Assembly (NCBI GenBank): GCA_037379345.1
Contig: CM074513.1
Coordinates: 56,275,195-56,339,194, forward strand
DNA from: Perna viridis
Lineage: Eukaryota
DNA length: 64,000 nucleotides
Reading direction: 5' to 3'
Shown here: positions 12,666 through 49,845 of the stretch, piece after piece
Position numbering within the stretch: the stretch's first letter is position 1
Layout: the number at the start of each line of letters is the position of its first letter
The notes under the pieces: generated by a model
Told to the model about the DNA's origin: nothing
The model's database searches: none
The model's input: the letters and a program-made list of their open reading frames with translations, nothing else
Translations under genes and position numbers: made by a program

Positions 12666-13470
12666 TCATGACTTCTGATTCTGAGGTGTTTCATTTGGAT
12701 TTAAGTTTAGATCTAGTACTTCTTTCATTAGCGGCTGTATAACTTCTGGATTTACTTTCAAGAGAACATGAGAGTGTTCCTCATTTAAGTTACGAATATC
12801 AGTCAATTTCATCAGCAGCTTTGGGTAAATACTGCGGACTATTTGAGGAGGGTACCTAGATTCTAGGTAACGTAACAGTAACAAGGCATATTTGTCTTGC
12901 TCTTGAGAAATATAAGCTTTGTCCGTAACATTTGGCCGATCAGGGGAAAATAGAGAAATCACAAGCAGAAGCATCAGCATTGTTTCATCCGCTTTCAAGT
13001 CAATGGCAAGCTGTCTTGTGAACTTCATGTGTTCCTCAAATAAATTGGGACCTTCAGCCATTCTCATCTGCTCTGTTGTCATAGCATGATCTGAGTTATC
13101 TAATGGATCCAGCCACTGTTGTTTCTCCTTATCAAATGTTATAACTGATCGTAAGATCAGAAGCTCAATGCTACCTCCTTTAAGTAAGCTGATTTGATCT
13201 AACTGAGAGAGAGCCTTGAATGACTTAATTTTCTTTGCCATGTCAATTACTCTACGCACACTGAGCTCTGCAATGTTCACAAGATCTCCAAACGATGGTC
13301 CTTCCTTCCTGACAGGAGGTTCCATGCACACTTCCAGGGACTGTCTGTAAGCAGATACAACCTCACCAATGAGGTATTCTTCATCAGGCTCCAATGACCT
13401 CATCTTATACTGCGTAGAACTGACCACACCTGACTGTGGACTCAACTTTGATGTTTCTTCCCTCATTTTT
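12666..13470 (-). CDS. HR96: NR1J/HR96-like nuclear receptor, terminal exon (hinge + whole ligand-binding domain)
   Basis: Acceptor ctcttttag|A AAA ATG at 13470 (phase 2). Contains LBD signature VIDMAKKIKSFKALSQLDQISLLKGG, LFSPDRPNV, KLTDIRNLNEEH and AF-2 QPLMKEVLDL. Stop TGA ends at 12666. Symbol denotes the NR1J group, the exact paralog is not determined. Confidence 0.93.
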
Positions 13471-14012: not shown

Positions 14013-14147
14013 GAAGTATTTTAAAAATTATATCTCTTTTGCATAAATGTTTGAAAGTGGTAATTGAGCTATGTTAAGTTTACCGCATACTGTCTTCATG
14101 TTTTACTTTTTGGAACACAAGCCCAAAACTTTTAATTTATGTTATTT

Positions 14148-14185
<38 letters not shown>

Positions 14186-14342
14186 AGAAGTATTTTAAAA
14201 ATTATATCTCTTTTGCATAAATGTTTGAAAGTGGTAATTGAGCTATGTTAAGTTTACCGCATACTGTCTTCATGTTTTACTTTTTGGAACACAAGCCCAA
14301 AACTTTTAATTTATGTTATTTTTATATATATATATATCCAGA
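14013..14342. repeat. Near-perfect tandem duplication (period about 174 bp), each copy ending in (TA)n
   Basis: gaagtattttaaaaattatatctc...aatttatgttattttt(ta)n tccaga begins at 14013 and at 14187. Copies differ mainly in TA length. Confidence 0.9.
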
Positions 14343-14377: not shown

Positions 14378-14544
14378 CTATTTTCTTCTATTCTTTGTCT
14401 TTTTCTGGTCTTTTCTTCCTCTGTAAGGATGTATTCTTTTCTCATTCCAATCTCAAAACATTTCCTAAGTCTGCAACGTTTACAGAACCTCCTGTTTGAC
14501 ACATCCATTTTACATTTCTCTTCATAAGGACATTTGAAGTAGTC
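14378..14544 (-). CDS. HR96: NR1J/HR96-like receptor, second zinc finger exon
   Basis: tttcag|GAC TAC...AAT AG|gtatga, 167 nt, phase 0/2. Encodes DYFKCPYEEKCKMDVSNRRFCKRCRLRKCFEIGMRKEYILTEEEKTRKRQRIEEN(R). Confidence 0.95.
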
Positions 14545-17500
14545 CTGAAATTCAAAGAAAATATGTGTTACTTTTCAACACACTTATACATGCAGGGTGA
14601 TAAAGATACCAAATGAACCAATCTTTCTATACAAACACCATCTAGTCTTGATGATGACTTCTTTTTCTGATAAAGCAAAGCATGTACCAGTAACTGGAGG
14701 TTGGTTGAACACCTATTAACAGTTTAAAAAAAAAACTTATTAATTCTTGGAATTGCTAATTCTTTAACCATCTTATCTGTCTTAACCCTTTACTTCATAA
14801 TGATATATAATGACTTCTTCTGAAGCCCCTTCTTTTCTAAGGTTTACAGAAGAATTTAGCCATGGATTTCCCTGCACCTTTTTGGCTAATCTGACAGCAA
14901 ATCTTGAGGCCTTACAACTTTACCAAATATCCTTAAAATTCATTCAATAGCTATATATTATGGATTTAGCAGGTTTCTGACTCTACCATTTCATACTGAT
15001 TTAAAAAGAATTAAAGCCAATTTTCAGTGAAAAAATTGACAAAAAAAATGCATTTTCTCCCCCTTTTAGGACAAAGATTTTAAAAATAGACCACAAAATA
15101 TATTTCTCTGGTTAAATTTTTCATGAACAAATAATACAGGTACATTTCAAGTAAATTTTTATCACTTATGTTAGGTTTTTTGGTTGAATCATTCTTAATT
15201 AGATAATTTTCAATAAGATGATGTGTAGGACAGTGAAAGAGAAACACATTGTAAATGTGACTGACATGTAATGCACTGCATGTTTTCCATATCAATCTTG
15301 TACCTTTATGACAGGTGTCATATGATTTAAATCAACACTTTTACATTAACATTTCAAATTCATCTATTCAAGTAAGTCATTATAGTGATAGCTGACTCCT
15401 AAATCAATCTTAGGAAGGTGACAAAAGTTGGATTCTATTTCTGAATGCACTGCTAAAACATTTATCATCTTCTTGTGCTTCACCTTTTTTATGATTGAAT
15501 AAAAAAATATAACTTATTGATAAACTATACCATAAAAACTTTTTCATTCTAAGGATCACATATACCCCACCAGCTGCCATAAGAATTTTAACCTATCATT
15601 TAAAAATATCAGCTCAACTGCAATAAATCTGCTTAACTAAATCTATTATTTACAATATAAAGAACTTGGATTTTTTCTTACAGAAAAAAATAAATAACAT
15701 ATAAATGTACTATAACATTGTAGAAATGAAAAGTATCATGGTTCTGATGATAGAAACTTGACTACTTAGCCTGACCCTTTCAGAACCCCATATGTCTAAC
15801 ATTTGTAGAAATCATTAGAGATATTCAAAAGAATCAAAACACTAATTCATAATTTGAGTTTAAAACTGATTAATTATAACAGCAAGCGACTGAGATTGGT
15901 GTTTAATGAGAAGAGAAGGTATTGATTTGGCTGTCAACACTGCTGTTAGAGATAATGACAATACATGGTGTATGTGACATATTCTAACGTTGTCAATATA
16001 TTATGGATTACCTTTTTTTCTACTGTGATTATTCAACAGTGAAATTCATGCAAAATTATAAACCTTACTGAAAACATATTAATGAAGATATTGATAATTA
16101 AGTTTTTTCATTACAAACTAAATAAGAACTTGACAAAAAATCTCGTCCTTAAATGTTATCATTAAAGTTTTCCTTCTATAATACCATTAATAATTCAATA
16201 ATTTTATGACAGAAATGATGCTTAACTTGACAATGATGTTTCCTTTTTCAGTTAACCTATAAAAAAAATCATCAATTTTTATTAGTTACATAATTTTAAG
16301 TTACTTGTAGCAAAGTATGCAAGATTGTCTCACAACAAGGAGACACATAGAACAATAGAACTCACTTCTCCTATACAGTTTGGTTAGTTACATTATGTTG
16401 CTGCATTTCCTAGTGATACAATTTTCATAGTGACATATCTTAACTATATCTGTTCTCCTATAAAGTTTGGATTTGGAATGAAAAAATAGAAACTTATTTT
16501 TAATGCCCAAACAACTACTGCCCAAATATTGCTTTCTAACAGTGACTGTTGGTCAAAAGTTTTCTGTGGACAAATATGTTAACATGTAGATAGAATATGT
16601 ATAATTACTTCTCAACTTGGTCAATACTATTCAGTTATCACATACTTAACAGTGATTTTTCCAACAGGGATGCATCTGATACTACCCAACATTATCAGTT
16701 TTAATATCCTGTCATTGTCTCCCAATCATAATGCGGGTACAACCTTCATAAGTTTTAAGTTTCCACCAATCTTGTATACGACCAAATGTGCCACATATGA
16801 TAATCATATGGTGCTCAATTCATATGATAATCATATGACAATCATATGATATTTAACATAGTAAATCATATTTAAGGATGGATGTGTCACATTTGTTTGA
16901 TGCCATCATGACTCTGAGGTGTTGAACTGGACATAGAAAACCACAAATTTTATGATTAAGTAAAATTATCTTCAATTAAACTAATAAACAACTTCTACAG
17001 CTTCATGACTCAGGTTAAATTGCAGAAATTCTTTGCATATTGCAGTTTAGTTTCTTCAATTCAGATGAACAATAAAAAAAATAAAAATAAACAATAAAAA
17101 ATAATTTTGAAACAAATAAAACCTTAGAGAATGAAGAGTATTCATTTGTGTCCTTAAAGATTGGATTCATCAATTTCATTTTTACTCAAACAAATTTCAT
17201 AGAATAAATAAATAATAAGTAAACAGTAGAAAATTTAAAAGGTAATAAGTATACCTATAAAATACAAAACATGTTTATAAAAGTTCTTGTCCAAGAGAAA
17301 TAAGCATCAATTTGATAATTAGTTTTGTCCGATTCAAAATGAAATGAATTGATATAAAAATATGAAGGGATATTCTCCAATGAACCAAATTATAGTACAT
17401 GTAGTCTGAATATTTTCCCTCTTGTTCACTGACCTGTTTTAATTATCATTTTCTGAAATGGGAGTCATGTATAGGACAAAAAATATGCAGATAGATATAT

Positions 17501-18256: not shown

Positions 18257-18470
18257 CAATCCCTTTGGTGCATTTCTTCTGAAGAATGCTTTACACGATT
18301 CACATGAGATGGCATCAAAGTTATAGCCTAGAGCTTTATCTCCACATACACCACAGTATTTATCCTCCTTATTCTTCCGAGATTTTTGTGAGGCCAAGTC
18401 AGGTGATATGTCCATTGGACGGTAGACCCCTGCCATTGAAGGCACTCCATTGCTATTTGAGTCTTCAAAA
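18257..18470 (-). CDS. HR96: NR1J/HR96-like receptor, first zinc finger exon
   Basis: tttctcattacag|T TTT GAA...GGA TTG|gtaggt, 214 nt, phase 2/0. Encodes ...KYCGVCGDKALGYNFDAISCESCKAFFRRNAPKGL. The ESCKA P-box is diagnostic of NR1J (HR96/DAF-12/NHR-8). Confidence 0.95.
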
Positions 18471-30188: not shown

Positions 30189-31876
30189 TTCAGCAAATTT
30201 TAAACTTCTTTGTCAAACCACTAAGGAAGTATTTATACATCCAAGTATCATTTTTTCCTGCCTCCTTAATATCAAACTGAATATTCTTCTATAAACATAT
30301 GAAATCTAAAGTCATATGGAGGGAAATAAGATAAAAAGTTATTGGCAGCGCTGGAAATGTATAGATGAATATCAAGTAAGATTTCAGTTTAAAATATTTT
30401 CATAAGTTTGAATTGCCAAAGACACACTTTAAGTCATTACAGCAGTATTCCAGAAATTTTTTTATCAATATAATGAGAATAGATATGGTGAATATTTCTG
30501 AGAGACAACAACCCTACCAGGATAAAAATGTCAGCCAAAGGCCACCCAATGGTCTTCAAAGAATGATGAGGAAACCAATACAATGGACAATCCTATCACA
30601 GTCATATATAAGAACAAAACTGGTAAATACAGGGTTGCCATACCTAAAATTTACACTAAATGTAACAAAAAAACAAGATATTAACTTAGCATGCTCCCTG
30701 CTATCGACACAAATCATCTATACATGGCAGAGATCCATACCACCCTCAGTATCAACACCTACTTGTTTTTCACATATTACTTTTTAATTTTTCTTTAATA
30801 TGATATCTACAAAATTTCATTAAAATTTACAATCATGTGAACAGAATAAATTCATTTTATTAGAAATTTTCTTCAGATGTGATTATTTTTATGGAATCTA
30901 TCGAATCTTTTTTTATAATTACATCATTTAAGGATGCAAAATCATCTCCCATAAAGTCAAATTCCTACTCAAATTTCATTGATTCTGATACACAGAACTT
31001 AAATGTCAAATCTCAATCAATGTCTATTCCCTTCATAATACTACTTGGTACATTAATGTTGATTTCTGAGTGGCTAAAAAACCTTTAAATTTTATGTCCT
31101 AACCAGATTTTGCAGGAAAATGAGATTTTAATAATATTGCACTTCTCAATGGGACAAAAAGTCACAAAAAAATCCTAGGACATCTCCATGATCAACCATT
31201 GTACAATAATGAATTTCCTTTAGGTGCATTTTCTATTAAATGTTCTCATAAAATATGAACGGGTAATCTATCAATATTATGACAAAGTACTGCTGAACAC
31301 TGAATATTTGTTTTTCTCTACAATATGGTGTATTAAGTCAACAAAATTCAAGTTTGGAAAGTAAAACTTCTCATGAAACATATCAGTGTAAACCTTAGGT
31401 AAGCATAAATGTCATAAATATTCCAAAAATTTTCTTCAAAAAGAGATCATAAATAACAGGTGAAAATTTGAACAAAGTTTGAAAGCTTTAAAGAAGGAAG
31501 AACCATATTTGTACAACAGATTTAAGGACGGCCACACTGAACCACTGATTAATTCATAAAATATTAATACAAATAATTAATAACCAGAATAGTAAAATAA
31601 TGTAAGAGAAGAATGGAAAACAAAATATATACTGTAATATATACAGTCATTTATAATTCATAATAAAGAGGATAGTCGAATTAAACACGATACATAATGT
31701 CAAAGTTTAATTAAAGCAAAATTTACTGAAAGCTATTAATTACCTGACTGCATGACCAAAGAAAACCTGTCTGACAAAAAACTTTATCTCACACAATTTT
31801 GAATGGAAAAAAAACTTATTAAATTCTTAAATAGGTTTCAAACATGTAAGAAAGTTATTAATATTTATTAACTTAC

Positions 31877-32091
31877 CACTTGACAAATAAATCTCCAAAC
31901 AAACAGGTGAAAACATCACTTGTTTGGTCAATCCTTGGCCTCATATAGGGGCTATAGGGGTTAGGGTGGTGATTCATGGGGGGAGGGGGTGGTCCTCCAT
32001 ACCCTCCCATGTGATGGTGATGACCAGGATGATGTCCCGGGTGCCCATGGTGTATAGGGCCATGTCCATGCCCGTTATAGTCCGTGAACAT
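31877..32091 (-). CDS. HR96: Alternative first coding exon (His/Gly/Pro-rich A/B domain) of the NR1J receptor
   Basis: ATG at 32091 with an in-frame TGA just upstream. Locally GC-rich. Ends GTC AAG TG|gtaagt (phase 2), joining 18470 to give ...GDLFVKC|FEDSNSNG. Total CDS 1401 nt, 466 aa. Confidence 0.82.
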
Positions 32092-32273
32092 AACGATAAT
32101 TCAATATCAACTTCCTTTGTTAAGAAAAACTTGTTGTAATCCGCATTGAATAAAAAGTCAATCTAACTAACACAATAAAATCAAAGTTTCTTCCTGTGTG
32201 AGATTCTCTGCAACAATGTCATTGCTAATGTGCGAATTAAAAATAAATGTGGTGTAGATACACACATTAAACT

Positions 32274-32296
32274 AGGACACAGTTCAGCTTGGTTCA
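32274..32296. promoter_or_regulatory. Putative nuclear-receptor response element (DR1+DR4 composite)
   Basis: AGGACA-c-AGTTCA-gctt-GGTTCA, about 190 bp upstream of the ATG at 32091. Confidence 0.5.
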
Positions 32297-32389
32297 CACT
32301 TCACTCATAAATGGGGTTTATACAGTACTCAATAACTGTTTTAGTAAACATAGCATGTAGACTGGGTCGTTTGGTGCATTTCTCTCCTT

Positions 32390-32680
32390 TCAACCAATCA
32401 AATGATGTAAATCCAATAAATGACAAGAAAACTCCGCCCCCAGGACATTTAAGGACATTGTAAATCTGAAGGTTTTTACAGGAGATATCTTAATTTTCTA
32501 ATCTGTCAAATCAGTTATTGGCTCTTGATTATGTTGATGAAGGATATCAAAATTCAAAAATTTGCATTTACAATGATAAAATAGACACAGGCGCTGACAT
32601 CTGATTCAATGTTTCCACTTGGAGAAATTTAAAAGGTAAGTATATAATCTTTTTTCTACCCCATGGCAATCAGCCAATGG
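32390..32680. promoter_or_regulatory. Putative internal promoter for the His-rich isoform
   Basis: CCAAT at 32394, 32413 and 32674, ATTGG at 32517, GC box ctccgccccc at 32432-41 and AGGACA-ttta-AGGACA at 32442-57. Confidence 0.5.
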
Positions 32681-34351
32681 TCATTGTTTAAATATTTACA
32701 CCATGGCTTAGGTCACCTAGTCCAGCTATATAGTAAACATTAATAATATTGTATATTATCTTTAGTTACATATGACATTAATATTTTCACCTATATATTG
32801 ATATCTATACATAACTATATTTTTATCTAATCTTTATAAATTATTTGGTATTGATTATGTATAAAGTTAACTTACATTAATGAATATACTTAAATTAAAA
32901 ACATTGTAGTATTTGAAATTCTGAGAGTGAGTTAGCATGAATATTCACATGCATCATAAAAAGATTATCATTCCAATCAACCTTATTTCTTAATAAACCA
33001 CTTGACACAATTAATTAAATATATAAATTTTACAAATTTTAGTCAATTTTAAATGGACTAAAACTAAAATGCAAAAAGCATAATATAAACTATACTTTCT
33101 TTATACGAAAAAGTAAAATTTTTGAAACACATTGAAAGAAATGAATGAAAATAATGTTTGGGTGATATTCTAAGAGAAGAATATCATTGAATAAATGCAG
33201 TACATTTTACATGAATTTTAATTTTTGTAAAATTGTGAGCTACACTTTCTTAATTAATATTCCTTAAAAACAGGCATAATAATTTATATTTAAAAAATAT
33301 TTTATTGATAATATCTTGAACATTTTGTTTATAGGATTCTAAATTATTTGGTTACCTTAATTAGTTAAAAATAAATAAAACCAAAAGATTTTTTTAAAAA
33401 ACTTATAAAACAAGGACACATAAACATATTTTAATTATTTTCCTTGTAAAAGAAATAGGAATACTGGTGATGAACTCAGTGCAAATCACGGAAGAATCAA
33501 CTCTTGTACATGCAAACTTCAAATCCAAATTTGTGTAGAACTTTGAACAGTTGATCTTAAAATGCCACTTTCAAAATTATTTTGACAAAATCTTGAAATA
33601 AACAAAAACAGGTTTGTAAACTTAAATAGTGTGGTTGGACTAGCATCAACAAACAATACTGCATATGTTTTTTTCCCTCAGATGCAACTACCAAACTTTA
33701 TAATAAACTTCACTCTTAAAAGTGACTTATGTGCACCATGTGTAAATTTGAGTGAAGTCTAAATAAATCTCCTATGTTATCATGGCACAAAGATGTAAAA
33801 CCTGATGGTACAAACCCTAAAACTCCCAACTATCTTTATACATTCTTACACCACCAAAAAGAATTGACTATACATGCACACACATACTATACAAATACCA
33901 GTATGTAACCATCTTTTTGATCCAAGGTAGTGTATTTTTGAAACGATCCAATTTAAACTGTTAATTCCAAAGAATCTACTATGAGCATCATACGTACCAA
34001 AATATGAAAAATATTATTCTGTAACAAATTTTATGACATTAAACTCAACAATCAGCCAGTTATAACTATAACAAAACATTTTGTCCATGTGAAATACCAA
34101 AAAGAAACATAAAAGGAGAGAGATTATTGTTGTCGTAACCTAAGACTTTGGTCTCCACTGATCAGGAGTATACACCAGTATATGGATAATGATGAACACA
34201 TGCACTTTTAAATATTATATTTTCCCCCTATAGAATTTTCCAGTGAAGTATTTCCTGTAACCTGTCATTCAGTACAATTATCAGCCTTCTTGACAGTTTG
34301 TAATGTAATTCAAATGTACTTTTCATTTTAATACATATATATATATATATA

Positions 34352-37900: not shown

Positions 37901-39029
37901 TGGAGCAGTAAAATTACAGACAAAATAGTTTCCAATTATATCGATATACATTGGAAAACTTAAAATTGACAAAACATTACATAGAGAGATATACACATGC
38001 TTTGAAAAGCAGAGGTTAGACAAATAGACAGACAAAAAAAACTACTTCTATCTAACAATTCTTTACTATAGGGCTTTAAGAAACTGGTGGGTATATGTTA
38101 TCAAGCACGGCAATCTACCTTCAGAGAAGTCTTACATAAACTTTTTTTAAAGCAATATTTGTGTCATAACAATTAAAAAGTGAAATAACATGCACTGGCT
38201 CAATCTGTCTTATCTTGTCTAATATAATGAGACTTAGCACTTTTCCTCTCATAGATGTATCATTGTGTTAAGTAAGGAAGTTCTCTACATGAAAATTGCC
38301 AATCATGGTTTCAATTAAATGATGGCATCTTCATAGTTTTGTCTCATAATGTACTTTTATTCACAATATGAACTGATCAGTTTTCTGTAATTATATATTT
38401 ATCATCTCCAGCCACTCTTTGATTGAAAACAGTTTGAATAGTAAAACAAAATGATTAAAGTCTATTAACATGACCATAAAAAAGTACACAAGTTGTTTGT
38501 TCCTAAATGACAAATGGTAATTTGTTTTCTTCTTAATTTGCTTTGGTGTTAGTTTTACAGATCAAATCATTGTACATGATCAGTGATTAACAATATATAG
38601 GAGCTTAGAAGGCAAATACTACTTATTCTGCTATTTGTCAAATGACTGTGATAGAACGCAGTTGTACTTTATAAGGTCATTGGGTAAATACCTTTTTGAC
38701 ATAAAGAATACTGTGACTAGTAATTACACCAAGTCACTGCACTGTATATACTTTAAAATCTCTGAAAACATAAGTCTACTTTCACTTAAAATTCAAAACA
38801 CTTAAAGCATCATGTGTGCATCTATGGCCTATACCTCCAATTTTGGCATTACTTTAAACAAGAGAAGGTTATAGTGTTTCTAAGGAAACTGTGTTAAAAC
38901 AACTCAGAGGTATAATATTGACCAATGCTGTTTTATTTCTAGGGTATGTCAACAAAGCCAGTAATATTGTAGTATTAGAGGACATTGTCTAACAATGGCT
39001 GTGGACAACATCAACAACAGTGTTTCTAA

Positions 39030-40360
39030 GGTAACCCAGTCTTATCAACCTTTTGGAAAACAACTAAAGTCTATAGGCAAACCTGTCTAGTTTTTAACGT
39101 AACCCAGTCTCATCAACCTTTTGGCAAACAACTAAGGTATCCCACTCTCATCAACCTTTTGGCAAACAACCAAGGTAACCCATACTCATCAACCTTTTGG
39201 CAAACAACTAAAGTCTATAGGCAAACCTGTCTAGTTTTTAACGTAACCCAGTCTCATCAACCTTTTGGCAAACAACTAAGGTATCCCACTCTCATCAACC
39301 TTTTGGCAAACAACCAAGGTAACCCATACTCATCAACCTTTTGGCAAACAACTAAGGTCTATAGGCAAACCTGTCCATTGTTTCTAAAGTAACCCTGTCT
39401 CATCAACCTTTGACAAACAACTAAGGACTATAGGCAAACTTGTCCACTGTTTTTAAGGTAACCCAGTCTAATCAACCTTTTGGCAAACAACTAAGGATTA
39501 TAGGCAAACTTGTCCATTATTTGTAAGGTATCCGTCTCATCAACCTTTTGGCAAACAACTAAGGTATCCCACTCTCATCAACCTTTTGGCAAACAACCAA
39601 GGTAACCCATACTCATCAACCTTTTGGCAAACAACTAAGGTCTATAGGCAAACCTGTCCATTGTTTCTAAAGTAACCCTGTCTCATCAACCTTTGACAAA
39701 CAACTAAGGACTATAGGCAAACTTGTCCACTGTTTTTAAGGTAACCCAGTCTAATCAACCTTTTGGCAAACAACTAAGGATTATAGGCAAACTTGTCCAT
39801 TATTTGTAAGGTATCCGTCTCATCAACCTTTTGGCAAACAACTAAGATAACCCAGTCTCATCAACTTTTTGGCAAACAACTAAGGACTATAGGCAAACTT
39901 GTCCATTGTTTGTAAGGTATCCCAGTCTCATCAACATTTTGGCAAACAACTAAGGTCTATAGACAAATCTGTCCATTGTTTGTAAGGTATCCCAGTCTCA
40001 TCAACCTTTTGGCAAACAACTAAGATAACCCAGTCTCATCAACTTTTTGGCAAACAACTAAGGACTATAGGCAAACTTGTCCATTGTTTGTAAGGTATCC
40101 CAGTCTCATCAACATTTTGGCAAACAACTAAGGTCTATAGACAAACCTGTCCATTGTTTGTAAGGTATCCCAGTCTCATCAACCTTTTGGCAAACAACTA
40201 AGGTAACCCAGTCTCATCAACTTTTTGGCAAACAACTAAGGACTGTAGGCAAACTTGTCCATTGTTTTTAAGATAACCCAGTCTCATCCTTTTGGCAAAC
40301 TACTAAGGTCTATAGACAAACTTCTCCATTGTTTGTAAGATATCCAAGTCTCATCATCAA
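39030..40360. repeat. Composite two-monomer minisatellite (A = 38 bp, B = 31-32 bp)
   Basis: A = ggtaacccagtctcatcaaccttttggcaaacaactaa, B = ggtctataggcaaacctgtccattgtttctaa, interspersed in higher-order blocks. Confidence 0.93.
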
Positions 40361-48744: not shown

Positions 48745-49845
48745 AACAGTAACCTACATCATTAGTCACTGTAACCTGTATTATTAGACACTGTATCCTA
48801 CATAATAAGCCATGGCAACTCACATTATTAGTCACTGTAATCTACATTATTAGCCATGATAACCTACTTTATTAGTCACTGTAACCTACATTATTAGTCA
48901 CAATAACCTACTTTATTAGTCACTGTAATCTACATTATTAGCCACGATAACATGCTTTATTAGTCACGAAAACCTACATTATTAGTCATTGTAACCTACA
49001 TTATTAGCCATGGTAACCTGCATTATTAGTCAATGTAACCTACATTATTAGTCAATGTAACCTACATTATTAGTCATTGTAACCTACATTATTAGCCATG
49101 CTAACCTACATCATTAGTCACTGTAACCTGTAATTATTGGTTATTTGTAACCTACATTATTAGTCATTGTAACCTACATTATTAGCCATGGTAACCTGCA
49201 TTATTAGTCAATGTAACCTACATTATTAGTCAATGTAACCTACATTATTAGTCATTGTAACCTACATTATTAGCCATGCTAACCTACATCATTAGTCACT
49301 GTAACCTGTAATTATTGGTCATTGTAACCTACATTATTAGCTATGGTAACCTACATTATTAGTCATGGAAACCTACATTATTAATCACTGAAACCTACAT
49401 TATCAGCCATTGTAACCTATATAATTAGCCATGGTAACCTACACTATTAGTCATGGTAACCTACATTATTAGCCATGATAACCTACACTATTAGTCAATG
49501 TAACCTACATTATTAGCCAATGTAACCTACATTATTAGTTATTGTAACCTACATTATTAGCCATGGTAACCTACATTATTAGCCATGATAACCTACATTA
49601 TTAGCCATGATAACCTACATTATTAGTCAATGTAACCTACATTATTAGTCAATGTAACCTACATTATTATTTATTGTAACCTACATTATTAGCCATGGTA
49701 ACCTAGATTATTAGTCCATGTAACCTACATTATTAGTCATTGTAACCTACAATATTAGCCATGGTAACCTGCATTATTAGTCAATGTAACCTACATTATT
49801 AGCCATGATAACCTACTTTATCAATCACTGTAACCTACATTACAC
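48745..49845. repeat. 22-bp minisatellite, about 50 copies
   Basis: Unit gtaacctacattattagtcatt (variants gccatg, gtcaat). Confidence 0.95.

Follow-up and report, generated by a model that had tools for sequence, protein, structure and literature searches.

An alternative first exon of the nuclear receptor gene NR1J1-beta, which lies in the window (the whole 64,000-nucleotide stretch of Perna viridis DNA analysed here), pairs a conspicuous histidine tract with a short hydrophobic block, and it is the invariant predicted helix of that block, not the visible but variable His tract, that is the feature worth following. The reading we favour, at a probability of roughly 0.55, is that this first exon, under its own promoter, supplies an isoform-specific coregulator-docking helix of the AF-1 type together with a variable, disordered His linker. 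Since the A/B regions of nuclear receptors usually show little conservation, a 14-residue block as strict as the DNA-binding domain (DBD) in four mollusc classes would mark an unrecognised interaction, and the motif is a small, defined peptide that is amenable to pull-down and mutagenesis. For bivalves, the metal-sensor idea that an earlier note had put forward is possible, with conservation pointing elsewhere.

Gene identity, exon structure and transcripts

The encoded protein carries both PF00105 (zf-C4) and PF00104 (Hormone_recep) above the curated Pfam cut-offs, its best solved relatives are VDR, DAF-12, PXR and LXR, and ESCKAFFR stands at residue 129 in the DBD, a signature that the available text of PMC4070562 names as unique to the NR1J (HR96/DAF-12) group. 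The 466-aa isoform shares 93-94% identity with three Mytilus proteins that carry the annotation HR96-like isoform X1/X2, and Mytilus NR1J1-beta (XP_052100357.1, XP_063433234.1; the MgaNR1J1-beta of PMC11204112 and PMC13467592) has the same first exon, with that identity over the whole isoform. Because the published beta primers (Table 1 in the accessible text of PMC11204112) encode the MRKEYIL start and the C-terminus of P0127, a protein 93% identical to the His isoform, the gene is NR1J1-beta; judged by primer ends and identity, it is the mytilid orthologue of MgaNR1J1-beta. The NR1J/HR96 identity assigned in the earlier note is upheld by Pfam domains, ESCKAFFR and orthology. Activation by sterol, bile-acid or xenobiotic ligands is shown, in the part of PMC13467592 available to us, only for the M. 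galloprovincialis ligand-binding domain (LBD). Three other NR1J-like loci are present in the genome (C3:55973658-55982895, C3:30587782-30602538 and C5:29712039-29736592; 31-37% identical in the LBD), and the resulting four NR1J-like loci equal the four paralogues described for mussel. One of the further loci sits ~300 kb from NR1J1-beta on the same strand.

The alternative first exon (31877..32305, minus strand) comprises about 32305-32092 of 5' UTR and a coding part at 32091-31877 (71 codons plus 2 nt), which opens with an ATG at 32091, has an in-frame TGA four codons upstream, and ends at a GTAAGT donor directly after 31877. With the acceptor TTACAG directly before 18470, the join 31877->18470 is of the GT-AG type and falls in phase 2, splitting a Cys codon between TG and T and keeping the frame, such that the His exon, 18470-18257, 14544-14378 and 13470-12666 (all minus strand) form one open frame of 466 aa; in-frame splicing onto the DBD exon had been claimed from the letters and is confirmed by these sites. 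The shared exon (18257..18470, minus strand) holds the remaining A/B region and the first zinc finger with its ESCKAFFR signature, followed by an exon for the second zinc finger and hinge (14378..14544, minus strand; joint 14543/18256 in sequencing data) and by the last coding exon (12666..13470, minus strand; a loose end at 14378 reads into it), which encodes hinge and LBD, with the charge-clamp residues Lys278 and Glu449 present in the latter. At the hinge exon junction 14378/13470, Mytilus, scallop and oyster records vary by 3-5 residues (P0126, P0137; 468 vs 463 aa), which suggests a conserved alternative splice site, and reads of the present locus hold only the short join. Upstream ATGs at 32267, 32222 and 32146 (minus strand) form two short ORFs in the 5' UTR (28/13 aa, 8 aa), through which the His isoform may be translated less efficiently.

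Transcripts were sought in 8 of 23 listed public sequencing runs, from 7 studies, among which X21 and X22 are raw stranded RNA reads and X1, X6, X7, X11, X14 and X16 are contigs, presumed RNA or of unknown kind. The joint 18470/31877 (CT..AC ends), that is, the RNA-seq junction 31877>18470 that the earlier note had proposed as a check, was found in 7 of the 8 runs and 6 of the 7 studies (2 reads with 1 start in X21, 1 read in X22, and contigs in X6, X7, X11, X14 and X16); it skips 13,406 bases, and the His-exon DNA is single-copy in the genome. Among the X1 contigs the joint was not listed, contig assembly being a step that drops rare forms. Single contigs of 4,479-4,492 nt in X6, X7 and X14 hold both the His exon and exon 2.

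Contig 5' ends fall at 32292, 32292, 32305, 32299, 32304 and 32232, with no loose end listed there, and the cluster at 32292-32305 gives a weak hint of the transcription start. The likely promoter (32394..32439, minus strand) consists of a GC box at 32439-32434 (the window has only 2 of these) together with a pair of CCAAT boxes in reverse orientation, at 32417 and 32398, all of them consensus matches only, which lie 90-135 nt above the contig 5' ends; a consensus scan found no TATA match there. Because the contig ends cluster without loose ends below GC and CCAAT boxes, the 32091-31877 exon is likely an alternative first exon driven by its own promoter, its start being weakly hinted at by contig ends, as the proposal of a promoter-specific isoform had anticipated. 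Isoform status is confirmed by a different upstream exon that is also joined to 18470, in X21 (16 reads vs 2 for the His exon), X11, X1 and X16. This second exon maps to 53936-53957, within a 38-nt internal exon YLYDEATKMENL (53934..53971, minus strand) of isoforms from more distal promoters, which alternates with the His exon throughout the records seen. Its join was not listed in the X6, X7 and X14 contigs, where rare forms drop out and some loose ends are unshown. Isoform use seems to differ between samples, contigs not being quantitative.

The histidine tract and the adjoining motif

The His/Gly/Pro tract spans residues 8-27 (32011..32070, minus strand), runs into a poly-Pro stretch, and is a predicted disordered linker. 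It contains 11 His, with 13 in the whole exon and a longest run of 4, which agrees with the count first reported from the letters; the peptide quoted then begins one residue early (G7), a trivial offset. When all six frames of the window were scanned, only 1 of 32,230 stop-free segments of 20 residues reached 11 His, the maximum there.

To place the exon among its relatives, homologues were gathered by LBD (best 120 of 214) and by cluster membership, and their N-termini were then read. The orthologous exon starts MF[ST][DE][YF] or MLS[FY]CD, ends D-x-T-x-[DE]-VFTCLFGDLFVKC, and occurs in bivalves (mussels, oysters, pearl oyster, scallops, unionids, Mya and Dreissena) and also in abalone, limpet, Gigantopelta, Pomacea, Babylonia, Biomphalaria, a chiton and octopus. 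Automatic annotation already lists the His isoform in Mytilus, scallops and oysters, and for Mytilus NR1J1-beta the isoform exists solely in that form.

Across molluscs the exon carries 0-15 His, and the longest run is 4 or fewer in 26 of 26 distinct peptides (counted before octopus and unionids were added, with a search pattern that fixed 10 of 12 positions). His-rich forms are found in pteriomorphs, unionids and Babylonia, and His-poor ones in Mya, Dreissena, most gastropods, chiton and octopus, the linker of the His-poor forms being Pro/Gly-rich, Ala-rich or nearly absent. Counts are 0 in chiton, Pomacea and octopus, 1-2 in limpet and abalone, and 0-2 over these five together with Biomphalaria and Mya, all seven of which retain the rest of the exon. 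Conservation of the tract in related species, on which the earlier note had staked its proposal, thus holds in mussels, oysters, scallops, pearl oyster and unionids (7-14 His) and fails in chiton, octopus, Pomacea, limpet, abalone, Biomphalaria and Mya (0-2). A filter-feeder adaptation to metals is not supported, since the number of His does not track feeding mode: Mya and Dreissena, both filter feeders, have 2 and 5 His, and the whelk Babylonia, a carnivore, has 15. The first 26 residues are identical between the present genome and Mytilus and the His codons are mixed CAT/CAC, which argues that the tract is under some selection and maintained in mussels. Overall, the His/Pro/Gly tract probably serves as a linker that is disordered and variable.

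The hydrophobic motif VFTCLFGDLFVKC follows at residues 60-72 (31877..31914, minus strand), its last Cys completed across the junction and succeeded by Phe73 from exon 2, and combines two overlapping FxxLF (FTCLF and FGDLF), a Phe at every fourth residue, and two Cys. In the 14-residue segment VFTCLFGDLFVKCF, 14 of 14 columns are invariant across 11 divergent rows (11 of the 16 in alignment A1, five near-duplicates having been dropped), a figure that can be overstated because the rows were chosen by a loose pattern that flagged the motif. The same rows give 64/67 invariant columns for the DBD, 108/228 for the LBD, 18/52 for the hinge, 7/37 for the shared A/B region and 0/34 for the His tract, where no column is an invariant His. 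With 0/34 columns against 14/14 in the adjacent motif, the view that the tract is the main point of the exon is not supported. Octopus has one T-to-A change with both Cys kept, and the N-termini read held no other diverged version of the motif; FxxLF occurs in 0 of 112 N-termini lacking the His exon. Two metagenome copies (L008, L009) have the same phase-2 donor yet depart from the window in numerous third positions, with third-position changes at at least 9 codons among the three DNA copies (two of them found by a pattern fixing the amino acids), and this synonymous variation argues that the constraint acts on protein. At the level of sequence, these comparisons show that the motif is held, as protein, under a constraint as tight as that on the DBD in four mollusc classes, and that the His tract is not.

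A representative search returned 11 matches, 9 with the motif; P0232 and P0235 were dropped as repeat-rich chance matches. The motif is missing from the records of annelids and brachiopods that were examined (3 Lingula, 3 Owenia, 2 siboglinid, plus clusters), groups with few annotated isoforms, so that these records argue weakly for a restriction to molluscs. When the present genome was searched with the motif region, it matched the locus itself only (next matches at E 4-5), and hence no motif copy was found in the three paralogues. The His exon matched no Pfam family at E up to 1, the 32-residue motif region no PDB sequence at E up to 10, and the ESM Atlas returned low-score leads (0.75, 0.76) to zf-C4 clusters only, which are uninformative. 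A second alternative N-terminus of the same gene, MWSI[IL]HAYQY, of which tblastn found no copy in the window, is conserved in gastropods and octopus (P0178, P0193, P0214, P0267, P0275).

Candidate roles of the motif

AlphaFold2 on the Mytilus stand-in P0126 (132 rows) modelled the DBD and LBD normally and the N-terminus as coil (pLDDT 31-40, the His tract included), apart from a single N-terminal helix at 59-75 of low confidence (pLDDT about 50); a 16-row alignment, with mean pLDDT 40, was not used. The motif is thus weakly predicted to be a helix. Its hydrophobic moment at 100 degrees (0.29) is not above that of shuffles, 22.8% of which reach the value, and this counts against a docking helix; a motif hydrophobic nearly all round does fit a buried interface.

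The docking-helix reading starts from an exon that is transcribed, spliced in frame and alternates with the 38-nt exon, and from protein-level constraint on the motif, not on the His tract, in the four classes. On binding, the motif would fold into a helix that carries Phe60+1/+5/+9/+13 and the Leu residues along one side, and would present an isoform-specific AF-1-type surface, in which case promoter choice would decide whether the receptor carries a ligand-independent contact. In some bivalves the His tract may adjust spacing, solubility or clustering, which would not be its ancestral function. Similar aromatic-leucine activation motifs are held by p53 and VP16. In the accessible text of the papers concerned, the nuclear-receptor A/B region holds AF-1 (PMC4070562), FxxLF is a helical docking motif in the androgen receptor (AR) N-terminus (PMC509409), and Gcn4 WxxLF binds Med15 (PMC13004512). 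The likeness to Gcn4 WxxLF-Med15-type activation cores lies in a short aromatic-leucine helix (here predicted), a disordered region and acidic neighbours; the present motif is far stricter (14 residues invariant) and of modest acidity, with putative activity. Since ordinary activation domains tolerate residue turnover (PMC13004512, available text), complete invariance extending to Cys, Gly and Asp is out of the ordinary and may hint at a different use.

A reading that we consider unlikely has the two FxxLF motifs dock into the AF-2 groove of an LBD, either that of the same receptor or that of a partner, in an AR-type N/C interaction that would stabilise ligand or compete with coactivators. As in AR, exact FxxLF matches stand in the A/B region (here two), and Lys278, Phe283, Gln291 and Glu449 occur at the spacing of AR Lys720, Phe725, Gln733 and the helix-12 Glu, leaving the charge clamp intact; however, Val730, Met734 and Ile737, which the available text of PMC509409 credits with AR's FxxLF preference, correspond to Gln288, Ile292 and Leu295 here (register by spacing count, not structural alignment), an ordinary LxxLL-type groove, and in the single-chain model the helix was not placed with confidence. 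Unlike that of AR, the candidate binding segment here has two overlapping FxxLF and two Cys, is isoform-specific, and faces an LBD without Met734-type groove residues. It is quite unlikely that the motif is instead a lipidation or membrane-anchoring signal whose two S-acylated Cys send the isoform to membranes like palmitoylated steroid receptors. The steroid-receptor palmitoylation motif has its Cys two after Phe. FTCLFGDLF, with an internal Cys, fits F(X6)LL except for the last letter, and a near match of this kind, one letter off a loose pattern, carries little weight; the nine-residue Cys motif that drives steroid-receptor palmitoylation in the accessible text of PMC3248897 also lies in the LBD, whereas the present one lies in the A/B region. 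Both Cys are nevertheless kept in every row seen, octopus included, though the inner x positions of FxxLF face solvent (PMC509409, available text).

Equally hard to credit is a main job for the His tract, perhaps with the two Cys, in binding Zn/Cu/Cd, sensing pH or driving speckle or condensate localisation. Such a His-rich peptide would very likely bind metal in vitro, as general chemistry suggests. A density that is the maximum of the window (11 His in 20 residues), the retention of 7-14 His by pteriomorphs and unionids and of 15 by Babylonia, and the identity of the first 26 residues with Mytilus would all suit that role; yet seven mollusc lineages keep the rest of the exon with 0-2 His, no His column is invariant, no run exceeds 4 in any of the 26 distinct peptides, and there is no link to filter feeding. 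The human poly-His speckle factors likewise have a His/Pro/Gly low-complexity tract outside folded domains that is absent from other isoforms (PMC2644819, in part). That study collected runs of at least 5 His and put the minimum at 6 His, with interrupted tracts also reported to work, so that interrupted tracts can target speckles; the present tract, at a longest run of 4, lacks the 5-6 consecutive His of the speckle signal, and its orthologues range from 0 to 15 His. Isoforms, splicing, N-terminal regions and histidine all go unmentioned in the available main text of PMC11204112 and PMC13467592, whose results report no metal responses either. It is scarcely probable that the conservation stems from a DNA or RNA element governing splicing or the promoter, or from a degron, and not from contact with a coregulator: the invariant block does adjoin the splice donor, and upstream ATGs and a divergent RNA indicate layered regulation, but synonymous changes are many across the three DNA copies (two found by the amino-acid-fixing pattern) and 31500-33000 had no Rfam match at E up to 0.1; a degron stays a candidate. 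A composite is very doubtful as well, in which a promoter-switched, Cys-bearing double-FxxLF helix has clamped the LBD or a membrane since the origin of molluscs and the bivalve His tract gates the contact by metal or pH; if true, the gated clamp would make a sterol/xenobiotic receptor a joint metal and ligand sensor.

In the available text of PMC11204112, mussel NR1J1 reporter assays used hinge and LBD fused to GAL4, which means that the NR1J1-beta N-terminus was left out of them, and beta is among the least responsive mussel paralogues in the ligand panel of PMC13467592 (in part). Given assays that lacked the N-terminus and a beta that responded weakly, the isoform may explain this paralogue's real role in shellfish toxin or pollutant responses. 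A literature search found no description of the exon or motif, and the motif string in no paper, with subscription papers and supplements outside its scope.

A divergent transcript and repeats

On the plus strand, inferred from splice signals, an exon at 32517..32635 joins 38943 through GT-AG sites, and loose ends at 32636 in X7 and X14 contigs (two studies) map to 38944. The resulting divergent spliced RNA, likely a non-coding RNA, runs away from the His-exon promoter, antisense within the distal-isoform intron, and its second exon heads toward a tandem repeat at 39028-40356; its presence counts in favour of the first-exon reading. That repeat (38/144 nt units) is one of the large minisatellite arrays in the upstream introns, the others lying at 48749-49842 (22), 58738-59728 (30) and 62057-63094 (43). 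A short repeat at 16782-16860, matched on either strand by numerous RNA reads whose flanks differ, is a dispersed expressed repeat that does not belong to NR1J1-beta, and an exact 174-nt duplication is present at 14013-14337.
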